A stretch of 64,000 nucleotides of DNA. Origin: Chamaesiphon minutus PCC 6605. GTDB taxonomy: Bacteria > Cyanobacteriota > Cyanobacteriia > Cyanobacteriales > Chamaesiphonaceae. The DNA lies in assembly GCF_000317145.1 (NCBI RefSeq), contig NC_019697.1, forward strand, positions 4,102,886 through 4,166,885, read 5' to 3'. The notes under the pieces were generated by a model, which was given only the letters and a program-made list of their open reading frames with translations, was not told where the DNA came from and did not search any database. Both the position numbers and the translations under genes were made by a program. Shown piece by piece: positions 21,513 to 33,003 of the stretch. The first letter of the stretch is position 1, and the number at the start of each line of letters is the position of its first letter.

Positions 21513-22121
21513 GTGTTTGACTTACAAGGACTCAATATATACCTCATCGGCATGATGGGCTGTGGTAAGAGTACCGTCGCCCCATTACTCGCCGATCGAT
21601 TGGGTTACAATTTTCTCGATACCGACATTACGCTTGCTAAATCTTGCGCCAAACCTTTAGGCTACGATTTTGAAGATACCGATCTGAGTGAATCAGAATT
21701 AATCGCCAAAATCATTAGAGAACTGTTCCAAACCGTCGGCGAACCAGAATTTCGCGCTATTGAAACCCAAGTCCTCGCCGAAGTCTCCGCTTATACACGA
21801 CTAGTCGTTGCCACAGGCGGCGGCATCGCTATCGAGCGCGAGAACTGGAACCACCTCCATCAAGGCTTAGTCATTTGGCTCGATCCAGCAGTAGATCTCC
21901 TCGTCGAACGTCTTCAGGGAGACACCACGCGCCCCATTCTAGCCAACTCAGAAGACCTTCAGTCCAAATTAGACCAACTTCTTTCAGAACGTCGTTATAG
22001 ATACGCTGAAGCCGATATTCATCTGCCCGTTCTCCGCGATCTCACGGCTGAAGAAATCGTAGATCGGATCTTAGCCGCTATTCCTACTGTCTTAAAAACG
22101 CCGAGTATTACTCCAGATTAA
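21513..22121 (+). CDS. aroK: Shikimate kinase
   Basis: Walker A GMMGCGKSTV, and LGYNFLDTD shikimate-binding motif. Confidence 0.8.
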   Translation: MFDLQGLNIYLIGMMGCGKSTVAPLLADRLGYNFLDTDITLAKSCAKPLGYDFEDTDLSESELIAKIIRELFQTVGEPEFRAIETQVLAEVSAYTRLVVATGGGIAIERENWNHLHQGLVIWLDPAVDLLVERLQGDTTRPILANSEDLQSKLDQLLSERRYRYAEADIHLPVLRDLTAEEIVDRILAAIPTVLKTPSITPD

Positions 22122-22683
22122 AGACGATATCTTCATATATTCGATCGATGGGGAAAGTGCAATTAACACTCTTGAGTTCGACATTATCGCCTACTCCATA
22201 AGACATCAGTTCCCATCGATTGCGCTCGTTGCGTTGGTATACATCCAAACACATATCAGTCGTGCTTACCAGGACGTATTCCTGAAGATCTGGAGATCTG
22301 CGATAGATCCTAAACTTATCACCCCTGTCATACGCCTCAGTGCTAGGGGATAAAACTTCGATAATCAAACAAGGGTGACTGATAAATTTATCGGCAGTTC
22401 GATCGCGAGGATCGCAAGTGACGCTAACATCGGGATAAAAGTAAGAATTTGATGATTCTATTTGTACTTTTGCATCAGAATTTAGTACCTGACAGCCACT
22501 TCCTCGCAAATGATTTCCAAGAGCGAGGGTAAGGTTAACAGCAATTTTACTATGGTTGATGGTGCCACCCGTCATGGCATAAACGTTACCATCGATATAC
22601 TCATGGCGAAATTCCTGTGTTTCCTCCCAAGCTAGATATTCGGCTGGCGTGAGTCGCGGGAAATCTTCTTTTAAAGCAATCAT
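22108..22683 (-). CDS. Uma2-family (DUF820) putative endonuclease
   Basis: PD-(D/E)xK-like core PCLIIEVLSPSTEAYDRGDKFRIY, typical of the cyanobacterial Uma2 family. Converges on aroK with a 14-bp 3' overlap. Confidence 0.7.
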   Translation of the reverse strand: MIALKEDFPRLTPAEYLAWEETQEFRHEYIDGNVYAMTGGTINHSKIAVNLTLALGNHLRGSGCQVLNSDAKVQIESSNSYFYPDVSVTCDPRDRTADKFISHPCLIIEVLSPSTEAYDRGDKFRIYRRSPDLQEYVLVSTTDMCLDVYQRNERNRWELMSYGVGDNVELKSVNCTFPIDRIYEDIVFNLE

Positions 22684-22758
22684 CAGCTCAAGGGTATGAT
22701 GAAGTACGATTTAGAGCAATTGTACCATTTTCCTGAGTCGGTGTCGATCGATTCCAAC

Positions 22759-23247
22759 TCAGTCGATAAATTCCAACAAATCGAACTCTCTACGAATATC
22801 TAATAACGATCGATCGAGCAACGGCTCAAAGTCGAGAAACGGTAACAGCTTCTGACGGTTGCGCGTTTTAAACCAAATCGGAATTAAAGTTGGGATTAGC
22901 TTCGGCAGGACTCTCAGCACAGATCGATACAGCCACAGCGATCCCTTCTCTCGTATCATATCGTCATACATCACATCTACCGCTGGCGAATCTTTCATCT
23001 TCAGATAAGTCCCAAACGTACACTCACTAGTCCACCAGAATAGCGGTAACAGCTTAAGCTCATCGAACATACCCGTATCGCAGCCGTAGATAACGTGTCC
23101 CGCATCGTGAGCCAGCAAGATTTTGGCAAATTCCGATGGTTGGGTATGGGGATTCGTCACATGAGGATTGAATTCATAGTACTCGGCGATGCCTTCGTGT
23201 AGGGTTTGAGTGCTATTTTTGTCGAGATAGAGAGGTTGTTTAGCCAT
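22759..23247 (-). CDS. Hypothetical protein, divergent from a TetR regulator (likely its target)
   Basis: 162 aa with HDAGHVIYG and WW motifs. No confident family. Confidence 0.45.
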   Translation of the reverse strand: MAKQPLYLDKNSTQTLHEGIAEYYEFNPHVTNPHTQPSEFAKILLAHDAGHVIYGCDTGMFDELKLLPLFWWTSECTFGTYLKMKDSPAVDVMYDDMIREKGSLWLYRSVLRVLPKLIPTLIPIWFKTRNRQKLLPFLDFEPLLDRSLLDIRREFDLLEFID

Positions 23248-23254
23248 TTTCTTA

Positions 23255-23280
23255 TTTACGATACGATAATGTATCGTAAA
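23255..23280. promoter_or_regulatory. Candidate TetR operator palindrome in the divergent promoter region
   Basis: tttacgatac-gataat-gtatcgtaaa: a perfect 10-bp inverted repeat between the divergent genes. Confidence 0.5.
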
Positions 23281-23294
23281 TTATAATAACACGT

Positions 23295-23894
23295 ATGAAT
23301 AATGCTGACAAAAAACCACGCGGTAGACCTCGTAGCGATCGATCGCATCAAGCCATACTGCAAGCAACCTTAGAATTGCTAGCAGAAGTTGGCTTCGATG
23401 CCATGAGTATCGAGGCAATTGCAGCTCGTGCGGGTGTAGGTAAAACCACCATCTACCGCCGTTATCCGTCTAAAGAAGAACTGATTGCAGATGCGATCGA
23501 AAGTATTCGCCAAGAAATTGTGCTACCGGATACGGGTAATTTGGACACAGATATCGACGCGCTAATTCAAAATGCCGCCCAGATCGTACTTACCCCACTC
23601 GGACGACAGACTGTCGCAACAATCGTTAGTAGTGCCGCTCACAATCCGCAATTTGCGCGCATTTATTGGACAAAATATCTACAGCCGCGACGCCGAGATT
23701 TTGCAATTGTCATCGAACGTGCCAAAGCCAGAAATGAAATCTTACCAGACGTAGACTCAGATTTAATCTTCGATCTAATGAGTGGAATTATGCTCTATGC
23801 TTTGATTTTTCAACCCACAGCCGATTGGATTAGCTACACTCGCCGCGCCCTAGATCTCGCACTCAAAAGTATGCGAGATCTGGCGAGAGGATAG
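23295..23894 (+). CDS. TetR/AcrR-family transcriptional regulator
   Basis: N-terminal HTH FDAMSIEAIAARAGVGKTTIYRRYPSKEEL. Confidence 0.85.
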   Translation: MNNADKKPRGRPRSDRSHQAILQATLELLAEVGFDAMSIEAIAARAGVGKTTIYRRYPSKEELIADAIESIRQEIVLPDTGNLDTDIDALIQNAAQIVLTPLGRQTVATIVSSAAHNPQFARIYWTKYLQPRRRDFAIVIERAKARNEILPDVDSDLIFDLMSGIMLYALIFQPTADWISYTRRALDLALKSMRDLARG

Positions 23895-24028: not shown

Positions 24029-24340
24029 GTGCCAGATCCCAACAATTATCGAGAGCGAGAAGAACAGCTCCGCCAGCGCGAGCTAGATTTGAGACTGCGC
24101 GAATTAGAATCCGAGATCCATCGTGTCGAGCCGCCTTTTCATCCTACAGTGAGAGATAATCGCAGCAACAAACCCACTCGTAGTTTTAAAAGAGATTTAA
24201 TCCTAGCGGCGAAAGTTTCCGGGTTCTTCTTGACTGGTGTTGTAGTTGTATACATCTCTCAATGGCTGGCGTGGATTTCCTTCTTTGCCCTCATTGGTGC
24301 CGTTGGCTGGGCATGGTTTGAATTCGGACGCAAATCTTAA
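24029..24340 (+). CDS. Small coiled-coil protein with C-terminal TM anchor
   Basis: GTG start. Charged helical N-terminus (REREEQLRQRELDLRLRELE) and a C-terminal hydrophobic helix. Lies directly upstream of the first dynamin gene. Confidence 0.4.
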   Translation: MPDPNNYREREEQLRQRELDLRLRELESEIHRVEPPFHPTVRDNRSNKPTRSFKRDLILAAKVSGFFLTGVVVVYISQWLAWISFFALIGAVGWAWFEFGRKS

Positions 24341-24440: not shown

Positions 24441-24499
24441 TATTTTGCTTTTATGACAACGATCGACCCCGCACTAGCTCCCTTTATAAAAGAGGATAA

Positions 24500-24547
24500 A
24501 ATTCCCTCCTTGGAGGGGTGCCCGTAGGGCGGGGTGGGTAGATCTCC
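24500..24547. repeat. Solo copy of the 45-bp hairpin repeat (cccctccttggagggg core) marking the left edge of the dynamin island
   Basis: tccctccttggaggggtgcccgtagggcggggtgggtagatct is nearly identical to 32771-32826. Inverted copies lie at 32950-33000, 63478-63530 and 63705-63755. Confidence 0.6.
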
Positions 24548-24579
24548 ACAGTACCCCAACAACCTCAACCCCAAATCCT

Positions 24580-26640
24580 ATGATGTCAACTGCTAAAACC
24601 AATCGTTTCCTTCAAGATTTAGATCGAGTTGCGAGAGTGCGCCAAGAAGTAGCTAGTTCCCTCAGCCGGATGGTAACCAAGCTCCAGAAATCCGAACTCG
24701 CCGCCCAGACTGGATCTGGAGAAATGGGATTCGATCGAGATTTAGCAGATCTAACCAAAGCCAGTACCAATCTCCAAAAAGGTGTCTTTCGGTTGATGGT
24801 ATTGGGCGATATGAAACGGGGCAAAAGTACGTTTCTGAATGCTTTAATCGGTGAAAATATCTTACCGAGCGATGTCAATCCCTGCACGGCATTATTGACA
24901 GTCTTGCGCTATGGCGAACAGAAAAAAGTCACCGTTCATTTCAAAGATGGTAAGCCACCAGAATCGATAGATTTTAGTACGTTTAAAACTAAATACACCA
25001 TCGATCCGGCTGAAGCTAAGAAATTGGAAGAAATTAACAAACCTGCTTTCCCTGATGTCGATTATGCCGTGGTGGAATATCCCCTAGAATTACTTTCTAA
25101 AGGGATCGAAATCATCGATAGTCCCGGCTTGAATGATACCGAAGCGCGCAATGAATTATCGCTGGGATATCTGAATAATTGCCATGCAGTTTTATTCGTC
25201 CTCAGTGCGTCTCAACCTTGCACTTTAGGCGAACGTCGCTATCTCGAAAACTATGTCAAAGATCGCGGCTTGAGCGTATTTTTTCTCATCAATGCTTGGG
25301 ATCGCGTCAAAGAATCATTAATCGATCCCGATGATGCGACAGAATTGGCAGAAGCCGAAGGCAAACTAAATCGCGTATTTAAAGCGAATTTAGCTGAATA
25401 TTGTACGGTGGATGGCTACGATCTCTACGACGAGCGCGTATTTCCCTTATCTTCGATTACCGCACTCCGAAAACGGCTCAAAGATAAAGACGCCGATCTC
25501 GTAGGGACTGGCTTTCCACCCTTTATTAATGCTCTGAATACATTTTTGACGCAAGAGCGGGCGATTGCCGAATTGCGTCAAGCACGAATTATTGCCAAAC
25601 AAACTTGTACCCACGTCAAAGAAGCAGTCGCGCGGCGAATCCCGTTATTAGATACCAATGTAGACGAACTCAAAGCCAAAATTGCCGCAGTCGAACCGCA
25701 GTTTAATCAGCTCCAGTCAATTCGCGATGGTTTTCGCGATGATATTCGCCGCGTCCGCGATCGTCAAGCTCGATCGATCGCCGATTCGATGAAAGTATAT
25801 TTAATGAAATTGGAAGATACTTTCGAGGCAGATTTTCAAGCTTATCAACCTTCAGATATCCAATTCCTGGACTTCTTTAGTGACAATAAACGCGAACAAT
25901 TCAATCAATCAGCCCAGAAAGGATTTCAACAATATATTAATGATAAGTATTCTGCTTGGACGCTCTCAGCCCAAAAAGAATTAACCACTGCTTTCAGCGA
26001 ACTAGCGGAACAAGCCAAGAAATATGGAGTAGATTATCAAAACATCACTCAAGAGATGGCGGAGAAGCTGACAGGTAAAATCCATACCCGCAATAATGCC
26101 CTCGAAGATGATGGTACGCCAGCTTGGGCAAAGTGGGCGATGGGCTTATTTTCCTTAGCGACTGGTAATTTTGGGATCGCGGCTTTGGCTGTGGGTGGCT
26201 TCAATTTTCAAAGCATCATGCTCAATGTCTTTACTACTGCGGGAATTGCACTAGTCTTTGGTGCATTACTCGGTCCGATCGGAATTATCGTCGCTAGTTT
26301 AGGTGTTGCAGCGTTCCAAGTCGATCATGCCCGAAAATATTTTAGCCAGGAAATCAAGAAACAATTAGTCGCTAAGTTACCAGAGATTTCTAGAGAACAA
26401 TGGCAACCGATTTATAGTGCAGTACAAGAGTGTTTCGATAGTTACGAACGGGAAGCGATCGAACGAATCGATGATGATATCAAAACTCGCAAAATCGAGC
26501 TACAAAATCTCGTCAAGCAGAAGGAATCTCAAGAGATCGATCGAGTTACGGAAGTCAATCGGTTACAACAGTTTGAAGCTGATGTGTTGAGTGAATCACT
26601 CTCGATCGAGAATTTTTATCAAGGCTTCTTAAATGGTTAA
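24580..26640 (+). CDS. Bacterial dynamin-like protein 1 (BDLP-type large GTPase with membrane paddle)
   Basis: G1 LGDMKRGKSTF, G3 DSPGLND, G4-like INAWD. The long helical stalk and the hydrophobic paddle GLFSLATGNFGIAALAVGGF...GIALVFGALLGPIGIIV match the NosBDLP architecture. Confidence 0.85.
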   Translation: MMSTAKTNRFLQDLDRVARVRQEVASSLSRMVTKLQKSELAAQTGSGEMGFDRDLADLTKASTNLQKGVFRLMVLGDMKRGKSTFLNALIGENILPSDVNPCTALLTVLRYGEQKKVTVHFKDGKPPESIDFSTFKTKYTIDPAEAKKLEEINKPAFPDVDYAVVEYPLELLSKGIEIIDSPGLNDTEARNELSLGYLNNCHAVLFVLSASQPCTLGERRYLENYVKDRGLSVFFLINAWDRVKESLIDPDDATELAEAEGKLNRVFKANLAEYCTVDGYDLYDERVFPLSSITALRKRLKDKDADLVGTGFPPFINALNTFLTQERAIAELRQARIIAKQTCTHVKEAVARRIPLLDTNVDELKAKIAAVEPQFNQLQSIRDGFRDDIRRVRDRQARSIADSMKVYLMKLEDTFEADFQAYQPSDIQFLDFFSDNKREQFNQSAQKGFQQYINDKYSAWTLSAQKELTTAFSELAEQAKKYGVDYQNITQEMAEKLTGKIHTRNNALEDDGTPAWAKWAMGLFSLATGNFGIAALAVGGFNFQSIMLNVFTTAGIALVFGALLGPIGIIVASLGVAAFQVDHARKYFSQEIKKQLVAKLPEISREQWQPIYSAVQECFDSYEREAIERIDDDIKTRKIELQNLVKQKESQEIDRVTEVNRLQQFEADVLSESLSIENFYQGFLNG

Positions 26641-26669
26641 TCTGTAGTAATTGCATCTGAAATATAGAT

Positions 26670-26686
26670 GGTGGGCAATGCCCACC
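26670..26686. terminator. GC hairpin ggtgggcaatgcccacc after BDLP1; an inverted twin at 27391-27407 follows the next gene
   Basis: 6-bp GC stem with a 5-nt loop. The second copy is the exact reverse complement, so the two bracket the SMI1/KNR4 gene. Confidence 0.5.
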
Positions 26687-26710
26687 CTGCACCTTTTTTA
26701 CCACTTTCTC

Positions 26711-27367
26711 ATGTCTAAACTTCTTGAAGAACTTGCATATATTTTTGAATGGCTAGAATATACAGTTCCAGACTTAGCCGATCGCTACAATCCAGGTTTG
26801 ACGCGCCAACAGATCGATAATCTAGTTAAAGATTTACCATTTAGGTTGAGCGAGGAAGTTTACGAGCTTTATCGATGGCGAAATGGAGAATCTGACTTCG
26901 GTTATTATAACGGCGAATGTATGGTAGATTTTCTATTCCCCGACCATCACATTTCAGGAAATTTATCGATACCTTTTTGGCCTTTGCAAGATGCTATTAA
27001 AACCTATTGTAAATTATGGAAGATGGAAGAATCAAATCTGAAAAATCCACCTTATGAAGGTGCCCATCTCTGGGATCGAAAATGGTTTCCAATTGCTTCA
27101 ATGGAAAACAAAAGCATGTTAATTGTTGTTGGCGATCTCAATCCATCACCCATTTATCAGATTGAGTACGTTTTTCACGATCGTCCATTAAGAGTTTACA
27201 AAAGCTTAACCAGCATGATTTCTACGATCGCAGAATGCTGTGAATCAGATTTATACAAACTTATCAGAGATGATGACGATGAAAAAGAAGAAATGTTTTT
27301 TTACATCAAGTTAGACGAGGAAAAGCAAGAAGCAGAGAAAGATACATACAAAAAATACAACTCTTGA
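26711..27367 (+). CDS. SMI1/KNR4 (SUKH-1 superfamily) protein; orphan immunity-like gene
   Basis: Likely start MSKLLEELAY (the upstream part of the track ORF spans the hairpin). Conserved YRWRNGE and WF blocks typical of SMI1/KNR4. No adjacent toxin gene. Confidence 0.65.
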   Translation: MSKLLEELAYIFEWLEYTVPDLADRYNPGLTRQQIDNLVKDLPFRLSEEVYELYRWRNGESDFGYYNGECMVDFLFPDHHISGNLSIPFWPLQDAIKTYCKLWKMEESNLKNPPYEGAHLWDRKWFPIASMENKSMLIVVGDLNPSPIYQIEYVFHDRPLRVYKSLTSMISTIAECCESDLYKLIRDDDDEKEEMFFYIKLDEEKQEAEKDTYKKYNS

Positions 27368-27616
27368 AGAGCGATATTGTCAGCTCGTAGGGTGGGCATT
27401 GCCCACCATCTTAATTAACGATCGAGCTAAATATCTAAAAGTATCTAAACCTAAACTAACAAATTACTTAACTCGATCGATCCTGGATTTGTCACCCCTC
27501 ACCCACCGATATTGGGACAGAAACTTATGTAGACCATCTATGATGGAATAATCCATATATATTTGTGGACGATGACAACGCAATTTAACCGCTCCTTACC
27601 CAAACCATCTACGAAC

Positions 27617-27931
27617 ATGAAAGTGACACTTCTGGTAGAAACTATCCAACCTGGAAAAGTTGCTGCTTCTGTCTTGGAGTTTCCCGATTCTCGGATTGAA
27701 GCTGAAACTAGAGAAAGCGCGATTTCTCAATTACAGGCTAACTTTTTAGAACGACTCAAGCGGCTAGAAGCAATTTCCTGGAATATTCCTGTCAATGCTT
27801 CAAATAACATGGGGATGGAGTTTGTGGGTGTCTTTCAAGACGATCCAGATTTTCAGGCGATATCTAGAGATCTCTTAGCCGAACGCGCCTCAGAAGACGA
27901 TTCTGAAGTCGATCCGTCGTATTATGCCTAG
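27617..27931 (+). CDS. Type II antitoxin, HicB/UPF0150-like fold
   Basis: Start MKVTLLVETIQPGKVAASVLEFPDSRIEAETRESAI, an N-terminal beta-alpha module with an acidic C-terminus. Sits 12 bp upstream of a PIN toxin. Confidence 0.5.
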   Translation: MKVTLLVETIQPGKVAASVLEFPDSRIEAETRESAISQLQANFLERLKRLEAISWNIPVNASNNMGMEFVGVFQDDPDFQAISRDLLAERASEDDSEVDPSYYA

Positions 27932-27942
27932 AGGTAGATCTC

Positions 27943-28365
27943 TTGTCTAAATATATATTGGATACCGACCATATATCGCTCATCTTATTTAACCATCCTC
28001 AAGTTACAGAAAATGCGGCAAAACATCAAATTGCGACTTCGATCGTGACAGTGCAAGAACTCTTTAACGGCTGGATTGGGCAAATTAACGATCCAGCACA
28101 AATCAATAATTTACCTGCCTTATACTCCAAACTATCTACCACTCTAAAGTACCTACAGACTGTGGAAGTTTTAGACTTTACTGTAGAAGCGGATGAGTGC
28201 TTGAAAAATCTATTAAGTGCCAATCCACCTTTACGGAAGAATCGTCTGCAAAAAGACATGCGAATTGCGGCGATCGCATTATCTTTAGATCTTACTGTTG
28301 CCACACGCAATCGTAAAGATTTTGAATTAGTACCCAATCTCAATCTCGTCGATTGGACTCAGTAA
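27943..28365 (+). CDS. vapC: PIN-domain ribonuclease toxin (VapC-like)
   Basis: ILDTDHISL (the first catalytic Asp), further acidic residues at VQELFNG and KDMRIAAIA, and a final TRNRKDF. Confidence 0.8.
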   Translation: MSKYILDTDHISLILFNHPQVTENAAKHQIATSIVTVQELFNGWIGQINDPAQINNLPALYSKLSTTLKYLQTVEVLDFTVEADECLKNLLSANPPLRKNRLQKDMRIAAIALSLDLTVATRNRKDFELVPNLNLVDWTQ

Positions 28366-28490
28366 ACTTTGTCGATTTGGTGTAGATATCTACTCACTCA
28401 AATTTCTCTGTATATAGTGAGTATAACGATCGCGACCGATAAAAAAAGCCCCATAGTTATTGCTTATTTATTTAACCCGATCGACAAGCC

Positions 28491-30167
28491 ATGAATTCCT
28501 CACTCATCACCCACCTCCAAACTGCTGCTAACAAGCTGGAAATCGACCAAAACTCTAGATTGGGTAACGATCTCAAAACGCTTGCCAGTAAAGCAGGTCG
28601 ATCGAATTATCAAATTGCCGTATTTGGCCCCTTCAATCATGGTAAATCGACATTATTGAATGCGATCTTAGGCAATAAAACATTACCGATCGATCTGATT
28701 CCGACGACGGGTGCGGCGATTAAAGTTGTCTATGGTGAAGATATTGCGACGAAAATTACCCTAACTAATGGGCAAATCATCGCGGCTAAGAATACCGATA
28801 TTTTAACTGAATTTGCGATCCTAGATAACGATCGACGGATGCGGGATGATGTGTTAGAAGTCGAGGTAAGTTTTCCCCATCCGTTTTTACAGACTGGGGT
28901 TGAATTAATCGATTTACCAGGTACGAACGATCGCGACGAGCAGGATAACTTAGTACGCGATCGATTATTGGCGGCGGATTTGGTGGTAAATGTGTTAGAT
29001 GTACGTAAATTGATGACGCTCGGCGAGCGCGAACATCTGCGGGATTGGTTAGAAAATCGTGGGATTAATACCGTGGTATTCGTGGCGAATTTTACGAATA
29101 TGTTGGAGCCAGAAGAACAAAAAGAAGTTCAACATCGCCTCCGATTTGTCGCTGAGAGTTTTCGCTCTCAATTACCACCAGGGATTAGCAACCTCTATCG
29201 AGTTGACGCGCTCCCTGCTCTACGCGCTCGCCTGAAGGGTGACGACGCGACTTTGCATACTTCGGGGTTATCCTCATTTATTTCGGCACTCCAGGCGATT
29301 GTGTCGCACCAGCGCGAGAAACTAGCCGAGGTGCGGATGCCTGTGCTGCAATCGTTGGGATTAGAAATTCAAGGATTATTACGATCGCAGATTGCCAAAT
29401 TGACGGCAGAAGTTAACGAAACTAAAGAGAAGTGCGATCGAGAATTAGCCCTCAAGCGTCAAGCGCAAACATTAATCCAATCTGGATGGGAAACCAGCCT
29501 CAAAGAAGTCGAGCAGTGGTTATATTTACCCAACCTGATTAGCTTCTATCAGTCGCCATTAACTACGGCGATTCAAAAAAATGGATTTGGGGAATGGGAA
29601 TCGAGTAACGTCCGTCCGCGATTGCAACATTCTCAGCAAGAAATTAACGATTGGGTTACTAAAGCCGAAAGCTTTTTTAATACTTCTCCAGTCGAACCCC
29701 TAAAGATCGTTTTACCCGATCCGCCTGAAGTCTTATTACCAGAATCACCAACTCAATCTCCACCAAAACCTACAACACCATCTTCAACAATCGATAATTT
29801 GGCACCCACCGCACTGGCAACTGGCTTAGGCTGGATACTCGGAGGGCCAATAGGAGCGGTCGTTGCTGGCGGTGCGAGTACGATTGCAAATAAGCGATCG
29901 GGAGATCGATCTTCGGACAACACTAGTAATAGTAAAACTCCCGATAACTCGGCAGAGATTTTAGAAGCTTATACCGATGCGGCGGCTGATTATTTATTTA
30001 GACTAAATACTGAAACGATCAAGACAATTAAAGCCTATCGCGATCGAGCGGCTGCGGCTATTAATCCAGAAATTAAGCTCGATCGCCAGGTCGATTTGCA
30101 TCAACAACAAAACTTAACAGATTTAGAACGCTGCTTGGCAGATGTATTAGCTTCAGCCTCAGCGTAA
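28491..30167 (+). CDS. Bacterial dynamin-like protein 2 (partner large GTPase)
   Basis: G1 FGPFNHGKSTL, G2/G3 PTTG and DLPGTND, NVLD. A helical stalk and a Gly-rich hydrophobic tip ALATGLGWILGGPIGAVVAGGAS. Confidence 0.8.
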   Translation: MNSSLITHLQTAANKLEIDQNSRLGNDLKTLASKAGRSNYQIAVFGPFNHGKSTLLNAILGNKTLPIDLIPTTGAAIKVVYGEDIATKITLTNGQIIAAKNTDILTEFAILDNDRRMRDDVLEVEVSFPHPFLQTGVELIDLPGTNDRDEQDNLVRDRLLAADLVVNVLDVRKLMTLGEREHLRDWLENRGINTVVFVANFTNMLEPEEQKEVQHRLRFVAESFRSQLPPGISNLYRVDALPALRARLKGDDATLHTSGLSSFISALQAIVSHQREKLAEVRMPVLQSLGLEIQGLLRSQIAKLTAEVNETKEKCDRELALKRQAQTLIQSGWETSLKEVEQWLYLPNLISFYQSPLTTAIQKNGFGEWESSNVRPRLQHSQQEINDWVTKAESFFNTSPVEPLKIVLPDPPEVLLPESPTQSPPKPTTPSSTIDNLAPTALATGLGWILGGPIGAVVAGGASTIANKRSGDRSSDNTSNSKTPDNSAEILEAYTDAAADYLFRLNTETIKTIKAYRDRAAAAINPEIKLDRQVDLHQQQNLTDLERCLADVLASASA

Positions 30168-30357: not shown

Positions 30358-30426
30358 GTGCGATTAGCTTAGTGGTAAAGCAGCCGAGGTATCGGTCGAG
30401 CCTGGGTTCGAGTCCCAGATCGCACA
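30358..30426 (+). tRNA. Degenerate tRNA-like gene (Thr-GGU-like body, 4-nt anticodon loop)
   Basis: Perfect 7-bp acceptor stem gtgcgat/atcgcac, D arm gctt-agtggta-aagc, and T arm ctggg-ttcgagt-cccag. The anticodon arm is gccga-ggta-tcggt: the loop has 4 nt, as if ct and a were deleted from ctggtaa. Confidence 0.45.
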
Positions 30427-30626
30427 GCTAGCTCGCCCACATTAGAATTGTGAGCATTGGGAATGGTTTGCATTAAAAGCCAAGTGGTTAGAAACCGCTC
30501 CTCGGAATGCAAAGTCCGCCTTCACGGACTGAGATAATAGTCCGCGAAGGCGGACTTTGCAACCCCAGGCGCGATTTTAATCGCTGGCTCCACTGGTTCC
30601 ACAATTTTAATCTGGGCGAGCTAGTA
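30426..30626. mobile_element. MITE-like insert between the two tRNA-like genes, 27-bp TIRs
   Basis: agctagctcgcccacattagaattgtg versus cacaattttaatctgggcgagctagta (24 of 27 match). It carries a perfect 12-bp nested hairpin gcaaagtccgcc...ggcggactttgc at 30509-30560. Confidence 0.5.
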
Positions 30627-30631
30627 CCTCC

Positions 30632-30707
30632 CAAAAGTTAGCTCATTAGGTAGAGCAGTTGACTATTAATCAACGTGTAACAGGTTCGATTCCTGTACTT
30701 TTCACCA
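30632..30707 (+). tRNA. tRNA-like gene with Asn-like body and an anomalous AUU anticodon; encoded CCA
   Basis: D arm gctc-attaggta-gagc. Anticodon arm gttga-CTATTAA-tcaac, so anticodon ATT at 30665-30667. Variable loop gtgta, T arm acagg-ttcgatt-cctgt, acceptor caaaagt/acttttc with a C1-C72 mismatch, then a-cca. Confidence 0.55.
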
Positions 30708-31238
30708 AATCCTCCAGCCAACGAGGTAAAAGTTAGGCGACTTCTTAGGGTGAAGTTGGCGAAAGCCAAAACCTATGCCTAAAGGTTAGATTAGGCACCC
30801 TACTCATAATAGGCGGCGCAAGCCACAAGCGGTACGAGAGAAATCTCAAAATGGTTCGAGTCCATTATTTTCAACTCTGGAAAGTTGGCGTTTTGGTAAT
30901 ATTTAGTCGCTTAGCGATCGAATATTGCAACAGATTTTGTACCGACAATCGCGTGCATCTTTAATTCGAGTATCTGCCTTCATCTGCTAGGGTTGGTATT
31001 TCTTCGGGAATACTAGTTTTAGTCGAGCGAACGCGATATTTGCTAGTTAGAGTCGATCGAGTTATCTTCGGATAGCGCGATTCGACAACTGCTAACTCAA
31101 TCCAATTTTAGATAAACCCTTCGTCCGTCACAAAGCTGTCGAAAACGCCAGCAATTACAGAGTTAACCAAAGCGAAAAAATTTCAATTCTATTCTCCATC
31201 GTAGGTTGGGTAGAGCGAAGCGAAACCCAACAAGCAAT

Positions 31239-32762
31239 ATGTTTAAAACATTCTACATCAAACCTCACGAGCGAGGTATATTATTCAACCGTAGCGATTT
31301 TAAGGCGATTTTATCACCTGGTACGCATCGTTATTTCGGCTGGGATTGGAGCGTCAAGACATACGATCTCAATCACCCAGAAGCGCAAATCGAACAATTA
31401 GAACTGCTCCTGCAAACCGATCGCGATAAACTAGAGCCACACCTGACGATCGTGCGGACGGAATTCGATCGAGTCGCTTTACTTCAAGTCAAACAAAGTT
31501 GGATCGTAGTCGCTCCTAACCAATTGCGCGCTTTTTGGAAAGGATTTATCCCCGTCGAAGTGCGGTACTTCAATCTATCCGAAAGTTTGGAATTACCACC
31601 AGATCTAGTCGAAAAAACGCGCGGATTTGCCCTCAGTGGTATCAAAAAATTTCAGGTGTCCGAATCAGAAATCGGTTTGATGTACGTCCAGCATAATTTC
31701 GTGCGTCCGTTGGGAACTGGTGAATATGCTTTTTGGTCATCGTCAAAAGATTTGCAATTTAAGACGCTCAATCGGATGATTCCGAATCCAGTATTCCCCG
31801 ATGAAGATGTCTTAATCGATCGACACCCCGAATTTATCGCGCAGTATTGCACCGTTGTCGAAACATTAGCGCAACAAGTTGGCATCGTCCGCGATAGGCA
31901 ACAACCGATCGCGATTTTACCACCCCACAGTCGCAAATTATTTTGGCAAGGCGTGACGGTAGAAACGATCGATATTAGCAACGATGCGAAACTTTCCAAT
32001 CCATTAGTTGCCGAATTAGTATCGGGGAAAGACCAGATTAAAAAGCTCGCCAATGATGCCCTCCACGTCCGTGAAGTGCCCGTCCAACATCTGGGCTTCT
32101 TGTATGTCGATCGGGTATTTCAGACGCAGCTAGAGCCAGGAATCCATGCCTGGTGGACATTCAATCGATCGTTTACATCGATCGCGATCGATATGCGCCT
32201 GCAAAATATGGAAATTTCGGGACAAGATATTCTCACCAAAGATAAAGTCCCCGTGCGGCTAAATCTCACCGCTGGCTATCGGATTAGCGATCCGTTGCAG
32301 GCGATGAATAATTTGGCAAATATCAACGGCTTTTTATACAAAGAGCTTCAGTTCGCCCTGCGTGGAGCCGTGGGCGAGCGGACTCTGGATGGAGTACTGG
32401 AAGATAAAGGCACGATCGATCGCGATATTGCCGAATATATCCGTGTCAAGACTGCCAATTATGGCTTGACAGTCGAATCTGTCGGCGTCAAAGATATCAT
32501 CCTCCCTGGGGAAATCAAAACCATCCTCAGCAAGGTAGTCGAAGCAGAGAAATCTGCGCAAGCCAACGTCGTCCGCCGTCGAGAGGAAACCGCCGCTACT
32601 AGGAGTATGCTAAATACTGCCAAAGTGATGGAAGAAAACCCCGTCGCGCTGCGATTGAAAGAGTTGGAAATCTTAGAACGCATCGCCGAAAAGATCGATC
32701 GTATCCAAGTCAATGGCAGTTTAGACAACATCCTAACCGATCTAATCAACATCAAAAAGTAA
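31239..32762 (+). CDS. SPFH/band-7 (stomatin/flotillin-like) protein with three tandem N-terminal SPFH-like modules
   Basis: Three repeats of the ..G.L.V.R.F...L.PG.H..W motif (HERGILFNRSDFKAILSPGTHRYFGW; GLMYVQHNFVRPLGTGEYAFW; GFLYVDRVFQTQLEPGIHAWW). The third continues into a full band-7 core (VKDIILPGEIKTILSKVVEAEKSAQANVV...) and a C-terminal coiled coil. Confidence 0.75.
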   Translation: MFKTFYIKPHERGILFNRSDFKAILSPGTHRYFGWDWSVKTYDLNHPEAQIEQLELLLQTDRDKLEPHLTIVRTEFDRVALLQVKQSWIVVAPNQLRAFWKGFIPVEVRYFNLSESLELPPDLVEKTRGFALSGIKKFQVSESEIGLMYVQHNFVRPLGTGEYAFWSSSKDLQFKTLNRMIPNPVFPDEDVLIDRHPEFIAQYCTVVETLAQQVGIVRDRQQPIAILPPHSRKLFWQGVTVETIDISNDAKLSNPLVAELVSGKDQIKKLANDALHVREVPVQHLGFLYVDRVFQTQLEPGIHAWWTFNRSFTSIAIDMRLQNMEISGQDILTKDKVPVRLNLTAGYRISDPLQAMNNLANINGFLYKELQFALRGAVGERTLDGVLEDKGTIDRDIAEYIRVKTANYGLTVESVGVKDIILPGEIKTILSKVVEAEKSAQANVVRRREETAATRSMLNTAKVMEENPVALRLKELEILERIAEKIDRIQVNGSLDNILTDLINIKK

Positions 32763-32765
32763 CCA

Positions 32766-33003
32766 AAAAAATCCCCTCCTTGGAGGGGTGCCCGTAGGGC
32801 GGGGTGGGTAAGATCTTCGCCGAAGTCCTTCATCCCCGATCGCCTCCATCAACGATCGGTTACAATTCTCGATCAAAGCGAGAAGGCTCTAAGATCGATC
32901 GTCACATCTAGCCAAAGTTGCTCATGCTGAGATTGTTGGTAGGCAGTGGAGATCTACCCACCCCGCCCGTTGGGCACCCCTCCAAGGAGGGGATTTTTTA
33001 GGG
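32766..33003. mobile_element. MITE-like element: inverted pair of the 45-bp hairpin repeat with a roughly 120-bp core
   Basis: Left arm atcccctccttggaggggtgcccgtagggcggggtgggtaagatct. Right arm is the reverse complement, gatctacccaccccgcccgttgggcacccctccaaggaggggat. Confidence 0.65.

Follow-up and report, generated by a model that had tools for sequence, protein, structure and literature searches.

Paired or fused bacterial dynamin-like GTPases, such as DLP1/DLP2 of Campylobacter jejuni, the fused DynA of Bacillus subtilis and those of the LeoABC or 'Dynamins' defence operons, are thought to be heterotypic membrane-tethering or repair units, and some of them are reported to be phage-protective. 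Bacterial dynamin-like proteins (DLPs) are mostly encoded as side-by-side operon pairs (PMC6104087), and anti-phage roles have been reported for dynamin-like pairs and for B. subtilis DynA (10.1101/2022.05.11.491447). For cyanobacteria, 'Tandem A' and 'Tandem B' classes of DLP have been described, and the BDLP protein of Nostoc punctiforme has a divergent DLP neighbour (Jilly et al. 2018, PMC5827413). Here we describe a pair of this kind, BDLP1 and BDLP2, in a stretch of 64,000 nucleotides from Chamaesiphon minutus PCC 6605 (contig NC_019697.1, positions 4,102,886 to 4,166,885; hereafter the window). The pair resembles the Tandem A/B pairs, in which a second, divergent DLP gene adjoins in most cyanobacteria, but its two genes lie 1,850 bp apart with three unrelated genes between them, compared with 2-35 bp in many relatives. 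Our comparison with orthologous loci makes it likely that a cognate pair was split here by at least two accessory insertions at a variable spacer hotspot. The five genes of the arrangement are the following.

24580..26640, + strand: BDLP1, 686 amino acids (aa), an open reading frame (ORF) with exactly these limits; orthologue of Nostoc punctiforme BDLP, 'Tandem B' type
26711..27367, + strand: SMI1/KNR4 (SUKH-1) gene, 218 aa; the ORF opens at 26651
27572..27931, + strand: antitoxin-like gene, 119 aa, with an alternative start at 27617; apparently HicB-like N-terminal domain and a conserved acidic C-terminal tail
27943..28365, + strand: PIN-domain VapC-type toxin gene, 140 aa, starting 11 nt past the antitoxin stop
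28491..30167, + strand: BDLP2, 558 aa, the presumed partner dynamin-like GTPase of BDLP1

The GTPase pair and its relatives

BDLP1 aligned end to end with N. punctiforme BDLP (PDB 2J68, 2J69 and 2W6D) and has the same layout of GTPase, helical and paddle regions. The match to 2J68 was full-length and collinear (E 9e-279, residues 2-683 versus 2-688), and Pfam identified Dynamin_N (1.7e-32) and the bacterial DLP helical domain PF21808 (3.9e-161, model positions 1-373 of 373). The G1 motif GDMKRGKS and the G3 motif DSPG were located at residues 76 and 180, respectively, and the paddle is an uncharged and hydrophobic segment of 63 aa (residues 519-581; Kyte-Doolittle maximum 2.43). BDLP2, which is probably of the 'Tandem A' type, matched Dynamin_N (1.2e-23) and, across the GTPase and neck, 2J68 (E 8.7e-22). 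Its motifs GPFNHGKS and DLPG are found at residues 46 and 141, and residues 436-467 form an uncharged segment of 32 residues with 25% Gly. In pairwise comparisons with relatives, the ratio of nonsynonymous to synonymous substitution rates (dN/dS) was 0.05-0.09 for BDLP1 and 0.10-0.13 for BDLP2. By the precedent of C. jejuni DLP1/2 (PMC6104087), the two proteins would form a heterotypic complex. Similarity to the C. jejuni proteins, DynA and LeoABC is distant, however (E 1e-8 to 1e-17). Both BDLPs matched LeoA/LeoBC only weakly in PADLOC (about E 1e-11 to 1e-17, partial models) and the neighbours in the window are not a defence island, so the pair is not placed among the LeoABC-like 'Dynamins' defence systems.

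We scanned one genome per species, which gave 80 loci with BDLP1 relatives, and mapped the proteins of the window by tblastn; comparison loci are referred to by L numbers. The closest BDLP1 relatives were found in Chamaesiphon metagenome-assembled genomes, with 83-92% aa identity. A BDLP2 orthologue (44-89% aa identity) was located directly downstream of the BDLP1 orthologue in 57 loci from many genera, including Microcoleus, Nostoc, Tychonema and Acaryochloris. The gap between the two genes was at most 361 bp in 47 of these 57 loci, with a median of 183 bp; it was 32-35 bp in many Microcoleus and 2 bp in the Chamaesiphon locus L006, where the junction reads TAA-CT-ATG. The more distant loci L007 and L014 (77% identity) had gaps of 241 and 59 bp, respectively, and neither SMI1 nor VapC gave a tblastn match in any of the 80 loci. 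This comparison points to BDLP1 and BDLP2 being a cognate pair that was ancestrally adjacent. A preliminary description of this DNA, made from the letters alone, had stated that such pairs are normally adjacent, and had ascribed a Nostoc-like layout with a paddle to BDLP1 and a Gly-rich tip to BDLP2; all of this was borne out.

Adjacency is a common but not a general feature of these genes. In L009, L010, L012, L013, L018, L019, L021, L023 and L077, which come from Leptolyngbya, Stenomitos, Pantanalinema and similar cyanobacteria, the BDLP1 orthologue (63-64% aa identity) was without BDLP2 over the downstream span examined (6.6 kb in L021, 9.1 kb in L013 and 10 kb in the others), and pairing is therefore not universal. 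In many Oscillatoriales a third dynamin-like gene, a paralogue with 49-58% aa identity, is located directly upstream of BDLP1, so that three DLP genes stand in a row (L020, L024, L030, L032, L035, L042, L044, L047, L054, L064 and L067). These rows agree with the multi-DLP operons reported in Nostoc.

The spacer, its junctions and its genes

The DNA between the two GTPase genes varied strongly among close relatives, with ten states of the BDLP1-BDLP2 spacer in eleven Chamaesiphon-type loci.

L006: empty
L086 and L089: antitoxin and VapC genes only
L090: antitoxin and VapC genes and an 81-aa reverse-strand gene
Window: SMI1 and the antitoxin/VapC pair
L087: IS630-type DDE_3 transposase, 110-aa gene, antitoxin/VapC pair, then unrelated genes; BDLP2 gone
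L003: 102-aa reverse-strand gene, truncated window-type antitoxin (89% nucleotide identity over 27384-27833), reversed gene pair
L004: Unstab_antitox/ParE toxin-antitoxin pair
L002: Unstab_antitox/ParE pair and a 196-aa protein
L008: two unknown genes
L001: 416-aa NucS_C-like protein; no BDLP2 within 4.7 kb

The antitoxin and VapC genes are thus adjacent in L086, L087, L089 and L090, and L086, L089 and L090 have the pair without SMI1. SMI1 itself was absent from every related BDLP locus and occurs at the BDLP site in the window only. Of 50 loci outside Chamaesiphon, six had unrelated cargo, with genes for TPR proteins, for DUF559 and, on the other strand, for a WD40 protein of 1,194 aa. Toxin-antitoxin pairs predominate in Chamaesiphon, but otherwise the cargo genes share no function. 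Pfam and PADLOC scans of the cargo of other genera identified TPR proteins, DUF559, a giant WD40 protein and an IS630 transposase, which have no theme in common, and we therefore dropped the notion of a spacer that is specific for defence genes. An assembly artefact was rejected, since the vapBC arrangement recurs on four independent contigs and the window matches the C. minutus contig.

Two sets of junctions can be distinguished within the insert of the window, and the elements that define them are listed here.

26661..26688, no strand assigned: hairpin copy 1, resembling a repetitive extragenic palindromic (REP) element; core GGTGGGCAATGCCCACC (26670-26686), flanked on the right by the tag in reverse complement, CTGC
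26698..27442, + strand: SMI1-bearing segment, 745 bp, absent from the otherwise collinear L090; holds SMI1 and hairpin copy 2
27386..27416, no strand assigned: REP-like hairpin copy 2, cGTAG-GGTGGGCATTGCCCACC at 27386-27407, core 27391-27407; inverted relative to copy 1
27408..27482, + strand: putative remnant of the ancestral BDLP1-BDLP2 spacer, ~75 nt that lie directly 5' of the BDLP2 start codon in L004 and L008
27464..27507, + strand: left copy of the duplicated 5' end of BDLP2; relic that comprises codons 1-8 and the region before them, with ATG changed to CTG at 27483
28468..28515, + strand: right copy of the duplicated BDLP2 5' end, functional, with the ribosome-binding region and codons 1-8

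The first set of junctions belongs to the toxin-antitoxin cassette, which is ~960 bp long, is common to four relatives and lies between direct repeats of ~45 nt of the BDLP2 start. The first 25 nt of coding sequence read CTGGATTTGTCACCCCTCACCCACC in the relic (27483-27507) versus ATGAATTCCTCACTCATCACCCACC in BDLP2 itself (28491-28515). The local alignment of 27464-27507 with 28468-28515 scored 34, compared with 16.9 +/- 2.3 for shuffled sequences, of which 0 of 1000 reached 34. In L003 and L090, the relic still has an intact ATG. By blastn, window 27392-27507 corresponded to L008 12875-12990 and window 27428-27479 to L004 3660-3710, both of which abut BDLP2, and the alignment to relatives picks up again at ~28459-28472. 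A relic of the BDLP2 start upstream of the cassette means that BDLP2 once began there, and together with the flanking duplication it argues that the cassette entered at the 5' end of BDLP2. A direct repeat of ~45 nt would be the expected trace of a single crossover with a circular intermediate or of att-type integration. The ParE-type cassette of L002 and L004 is found at a different point of the spacer, and therefore represents a further independent event.

Some smaller features of this part of the spacer deserve mention. We considered whether the duplicated segment could be an integron cassette (attC), and dropped this option because the RYYYAAC-like heptamer is short, degenerate and expected by chance, and integron features are lacking. 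Rfam found nothing inside the insert. The VapC-BDLP2 spacer of 125 nt is closed by a 13-nt inverted repeat (28369-28381, TTGTCGATTTGGT; 28475-28487, ACCCGATCGACAA). The resulting long-range stem has a minimum free energy of -27.4 kcal/mol (z -3.2 versus shuffles), and the repeat could be either a cassette end or a regulatory structure of BDLP2.

The second set of junctions delimits the SMI1 segment. In blastn against L090, the window aligned at 24512-26697 and at 27443-28378, and the two sides of the break (26697/27443) are contiguous in L090 (5495/5497). The two hairpin copies form an inverted repeat (I1) of 28 nt with 93% complementarity. They are the only copies in the 64 kb, where 0 are expected by chance. 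The general form of the element is GTAG-GGTGGGCAnTGCCCACC, in which GTAG precedes a stem-loop (GC-rich stem of 7 bp, loop of 3 nt), in an intergenic position; copy 1, read in reverse orientation (26670-26690), has the variant tag GCAG. Folding gave -13.9 kcal/mol for copy 1 (51-nt context) and -20.2 kcal/mol for copy 2 (z -3.7), and the latter was flagged as terminator-like. Copy 1 is also found 3' of BDLP1 in L003, L004, L007, L014 and L090. Elsewhere, the 15-kb locus L003 has 5 copies, ~20 other loci have copies or stem variants, and stem variants in other genera keep the pairing (GGTGTGCA..TGCACACC and GGTGCGCA..TGCGCACC). GTAG-tagged REPs have been reported in cyanobacteria (Di Nocera et al. 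2013, PMC3733652), and REP-like elements serve as insertion targets (Tobes & Pareja 2006, PMC1525189). The hairpins of the window resemble these in their GTAG and GC-rich stem-loop, their intergenic location, their dispersal in relatives and the presence of cargo between two copies, which was also seen in L003 and L008; they differ in that the 64-kb window has just two copies, with no RAYT or insertion sequence beside them there. The positions of the hairpins suggest that they had a role in the insertions.

The SMI1 protein scored 29.7 bits for PF09346 (cut-off 25.4), a domain that is present in nearly all of its 56 homologues. Its start is probably the ATG at 26711, because the homologues are 215-219 aa long. 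The closest of these (76-85% aa identity) are encoded in other Chamaesiphon at a MatE-DUF3885-SMI1 locus, downstream of MatE and DUF3885, and the nucleotide homology to the SMI1 homologues is limited to window positions 26704-27383 and stops at the hairpins. With an SMI1_KNR4 domain above the cut-off in a small stand-alone cytoplasmic protein, it is similar to the SUKH-1 immunity proteins of polymorphic toxin systems (Zhang, Iyer & Aravind 2011, PMC3113570). Unlike these, the gene has no adjoining toxin-type gene in the window, and in relatives it comes after the MatE and DUF3885 genes. We infer that SMI1 is an orphan immunity-type protein, its family membership pointing to a function in immunity. 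Pairwise dN/dS values were 0.08-0.17.

For the antitoxin-like gene, the start is probably the ATG at 27572, because most homologues start in this way. The protein had no match in Pfam or NCBIfam, and Pfam detected no AbrB, RHH or PHD DNA-binding domain. Most of the 59 homologues have 119 aa, JGI assigns some of them to the HicB family, and their contigs also encode VapC homologues. In the AlphaFold (AF2) model, with a predicted local distance difference test score of 70 (85-90 for residues 20-64), the N-domain consists of three strands and a helix. The top Foldseek matches were HicB N-domains, all with E >0.001 (6g1c, probability 0.99, E 0.08), which is suggestive only of an N-domain that is HicB-like and not that of a classical VapB. 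The VapC-type protein matched PIN with E 7.8e-4 (20.5 bits versus a Pfam cut-off of 23.6) and the NCBIfam VapC model with 2.7e-10 (40.6 bits versus a cut-off of 140), and acidic residues D7, E39, D105 and D126 can be read from its sequence. It has 675 homologues; NCBI lists a protein with 100% identity as VapC family toxin of Chamaesiphon minutus, and a homologue with 83% identity is encoded at an unrelated locus. Pairwise dN/dS was 0.10-0.20 for the antitoxin and 0.06-0.16 for VapC.

With its small antitoxin gene 11 nt upstream of a 140-aa PIN gene with four acidic residues, and as a module that is widespread, mobile in cyanobacteria and low in GC, the pair resembles type II VapBC modules. 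It differs from them in an antitoxin with a HicB-like N-domain and without a Pfam-detectable AbrB, RHH or PHD domain, and in a PIN match below the curated cut-offs. We therefore keep the earlier label 'vapBC-like' for a PIN/VapC toxin-antitoxin pair but not its implication of a classical VapB, and the most fitting description of the pair is a PIN toxin plus a HicB-N-like antitoxin, a putative type II toxin-antitoxin system. A metagenomic protein of 103 aa (P0235) combines a part with 85% identity to the window-type antitoxin and a PF09720 'addiction module component' domain, which suggests recombination between two cassette types of the BDLP spacer.

In composition, the insert (26641-28490, 1,850 bp) is more AT-rich than either GTPase gene, as had been noticed before: its GC content is 39.1%, compared with 43.8% for BDLP1, 45.5% for BDLP2 and 47.2% for the window, and it falls in the lowest 1% of equal-sized sliding windows. 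SMI1, with 37.1% GC, is the lowest of the 44 ORFs of the window. GC at third codon positions of the inserted genes is 0.35-0.40, which is only ~1-1.4 standard deviations below the window mean, and the two GTPase genes likewise fall short of the average; composition alone is therefore not decisive, and we rejected it as proof that the insert is foreign. Both families have an intrinsically low GC content wherever they occur, with 36-38% for SMI1 homologues in loci of 43-47% and 39-42% for VapC homologues. Composition supports a foreign origin without proving it.

Divergence within the cassette was lower than around it. The synonymous divergence (dS) among the window, L086, L087 and L090 was 0.16-0.25 in the cassette versus 0.47-0.79 in the flanking GTPase genes. 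BDLP1 of the window is as distant from that of L086, L087 and L090 as the BDLP1 of L089 is, and in the cassette the window clusters with them. For genes this short and composition-biased, these values are suggestive only of an exchange of the cassette among lineages at the same site. Each of the five genes is intact and under purifying selection (dN/dS 0.05-0.20).

Explanations for the split arrangement

In the reading that we favour, BDLP1 and BDLP2 would have been ancestrally adjacent and probably co-translated, with a short spacer that held a GTAG-tagged REP-like hairpin, and in the Chamaesiphon lineage this spacer would have become a hotspot for the gain, loss and replacement of small accessory genes. 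The ~960-bp type II toxin-antitoxin cassette would have integrated at the extreme 5' end of BDLP2, leaving a ~45-nt duplication on each side, of which the upstream copy decayed while the downstream copy still starts BDLP2. The 745-bp SMI1 segment would have been inserted later, in a second event, beside the REP hairpin, which is now present as an inverted pair around the gene. This is the order of events that we propose; the mechanism may have been a Campbell-type single crossover, an att-like integration or REP-associated recombination. The inserted genes would be selfish or accessory cassettes and not parts of the dynamin machine, presumably tolerated because they are co-oriented and both GTPase genes are intact. 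BDLP2 would now be transcribed by read-through or from a cassette-internal promoter; a promoter scan gave 13 sites versus 14.4 in shuffled sequence, with none upstream of the antitoxin gene or BDLP2. The two GTPases may still act together on membranes, and the loss of tight spacing, as compared with L006, may alter the BDLP1:BDLP2 ratio.

All components belong to known families, and the arrangement is a lineage-specific mosaic that by itself makes no new system. Since the cyanobacterial BDLP pair is a model for membrane remodelling, this matters for annotation and operon inference in Chamaesiphon, where the five genes are to be read as a mosaic and not as a machine. The locus is a compact hypervariable intergenic site within a conserved pair, whose junctions are sharp enough for events to be reconstructed. 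It may be of use as a natural test case of how small recombinase-less cassettes move in cyanobacteria, and of the effect that separating a tight gene pair has on subunit stoichiometry.

Several points weigh against this reading. The comparison loci are mostly metagenome-assembled contigs, and in the window neither cassette is accompanied by an integrase, a transposase or recognisable terminal repeats. For the SMI1 difference, the choice of an insertion here over a deletion in L090 relies on parsimony and on where else the SMI1 homologues are found. The low cassette dS could in part reflect codon or composition constraints in short AT-rich genes, and not recent exchange. Finally, at least five lineages (flank dS ~0.5-0.8) have retained vapBC under purifying selection at precisely this position and with unchanged orientation, which would also fit a selected function.

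The preliminary description had offered two options for a single 1.85-kb insert, namely secondary insertion and deliberate nesting. Secondary insertion is consistent with the adjacent orthologues, with spacers that differ in close relatives and with the absence of SMI1 from related BDLP loci, except that at least two separate events and not one are involved. Functional nesting would mean that the toxin-antitoxin pair, and perhaps SMI1, was recruited, with a BDLP promoter that senses membrane damage or phage driving an abortive-infection RNase, or alternatively with the autoregulated toxin-antitoxin promoter setting the dosage of BDLP2. The five genes are indeed co-oriented with short gaps, vapBC stands at the identical site in the window, L086, L087, L089 and L090 (dN/dS 0.06-0.20), and the BDLP2 start region was preserved through the duplication. 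The anti-phage roles reported for dynamin-like pairs and DynA (10.1101/2022.05.11.491447) and the weak LeoA/LeoBC matches of both BDLPs would also fit. We nevertheless regard nesting as unlikely. It is unsupported because no cargo is conserved family-wide, or indeed outside a Chamaesiphon sub-clade, and because the neighbourhood is one of housekeeping genes (Crp-type regulator, shikimate kinase, TetR, carbonic anhydrase, MFS) and no defence island. An intervening gene is missing from 47 of the 57 paired loci, the toxin-antitoxin pair has decayed in L003, and its place is taken by ParE-type pairs or unknown genes in L002, L004 and L008. BDLP2 is missing in L001 and has been lost beside an intact vapBC in L087, the 83%-identity VapC homologue is at an unrelated locus, and a terminator-like hairpin stands between SMI1 and the cassette. 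In addition, PADLOC gave no significant match for SMI1, the antitoxin or VapC.

We consider it quite unlikely that the spacer is a dedicated, hairpin-marked cassette-exchange site, at which toxin-antitoxin and immunity-type genes are repeatedly captured and come to be controlled by a dynamin operon that responds to membrane stress or phage. In one composite defence unit, sensing or repair would be the task of the GTPase pair, and abortive infection that of the RNase toxin. The occurrence of vapBC at the same nucleotide position in at least five lineages, a dS below that of the flanks and the predominance of toxin-antitoxin cargo may fit such a unit.

That the intervening genes were ancestral to the Chamaesiphon locus, with the adjacent and other states produced by deletion and replacement, seems to us very unlikely. 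Deletions could have arisen through hairpin pairs, 5 of the 11 Chamaesiphon-type loci have the vapBC arrangement, and the polarity of the difference from L090 is not directly observable. However, the outgroups L007 and L014 (77% identity) and all other genera are without these genes at the locus, the relic of the BDLP2 start lies upstream of the cassette, SMI1 is at the BDLP locus only in the window and has its homologues at another conserved locus, and the dS of the cassette is below that of the flanks. Genes and composition are shared with relatives to the extent that four of them have the low-GC vapBC, but this applies to a sub-clade only, and the other loci differ or are empty. It is scarcely credible that the two GTPases are unrelated neighbours, with nothing 'split' at all: their identity is only ~25-29% over the GTPase half and the Leptolyngbya, Stenomitos and Pantanalinema loci have BDLP1 with no BDLP2 within 10 kb, but synteny contradicts this, as the order of BDLP1 then BDLP2 is kept in 57 loci of Microcoleus, Nostoc, Tychonema, Acaryochloris and others, often with 32-35 bp, and the literature classes the two as tandem partners (PMC5827413).

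Surroundings of the pair

Two further genes accompany the pair in the window and in some of its relatives.

24029..24340, + strand: small membrane protein gene; Pfam DUF3040 with E 1.1e-4, below the cut-off
31206..32762, + strand: SPFH/Band-7 (flotillin/HflK-like) gene; Band_7 with 9.5e-30

By tblastn, the small membrane protein was also found upstream of BDLP1 in L001, L003-L005, L007, L008 and L014. The SPFH/Band-7 gene lies downstream of the dynamin pair in L002, L086, L089 and L090 as well, and its product is a possible functional partner in membrane-domain organisation.

Between BDLP2 and this gene are two tRNA-like genes on the + strand (30358-30426 and 30632-30707), which scored 56.9 and 60.1 bits for the Rfam tRNA model. 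ARAGORN read abnormal anticodons in both, one of undetermined type with a 2-nt 'gt' at position 32 and one as Asn with anticodon ATT. The two genes directly abut in L002, L086 and L090. In the window, they are separated by a palindromic element of ~203 bp (30427-30629) that resembles a miniature inverted-repeat transposable element. It has terminal inverted repeats (30428-30452/30600-30624, 92%) and an inner hairpin (30492-30530 with 30539-30577). The element is absent from the relatives, whose alignments break exactly at 30426/30630, and the Rfam matches to it (MIR4374 and CRISPR-DR28) are weak and spurious.

A dispersed repeat, AAAAT(T/C)CCCTCCTTGGAGGGGTGCCCGTAGGGCGGGGTGGGTA, brackets the block from BDLP1 to the SPFH gene, with copies at 24498-24567, 32763-32810 and 32928-33002. 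These are 98% identical as direct repeats and 86-92% identical as inverted repeats, and more copies were found in L087 and upstream of BDLP1 in L086 and L090. Farther upstream, between shikimate kinase and the small membrane protein, ~1.9 kb of the window (22108-23894) is missing from L086 and L090. This extra DNA holds a Uma2 restriction-endonuclease-like gene, a 162-aa ORF and a TetR regulator, and the upstream side of the locus is therefore variable too.

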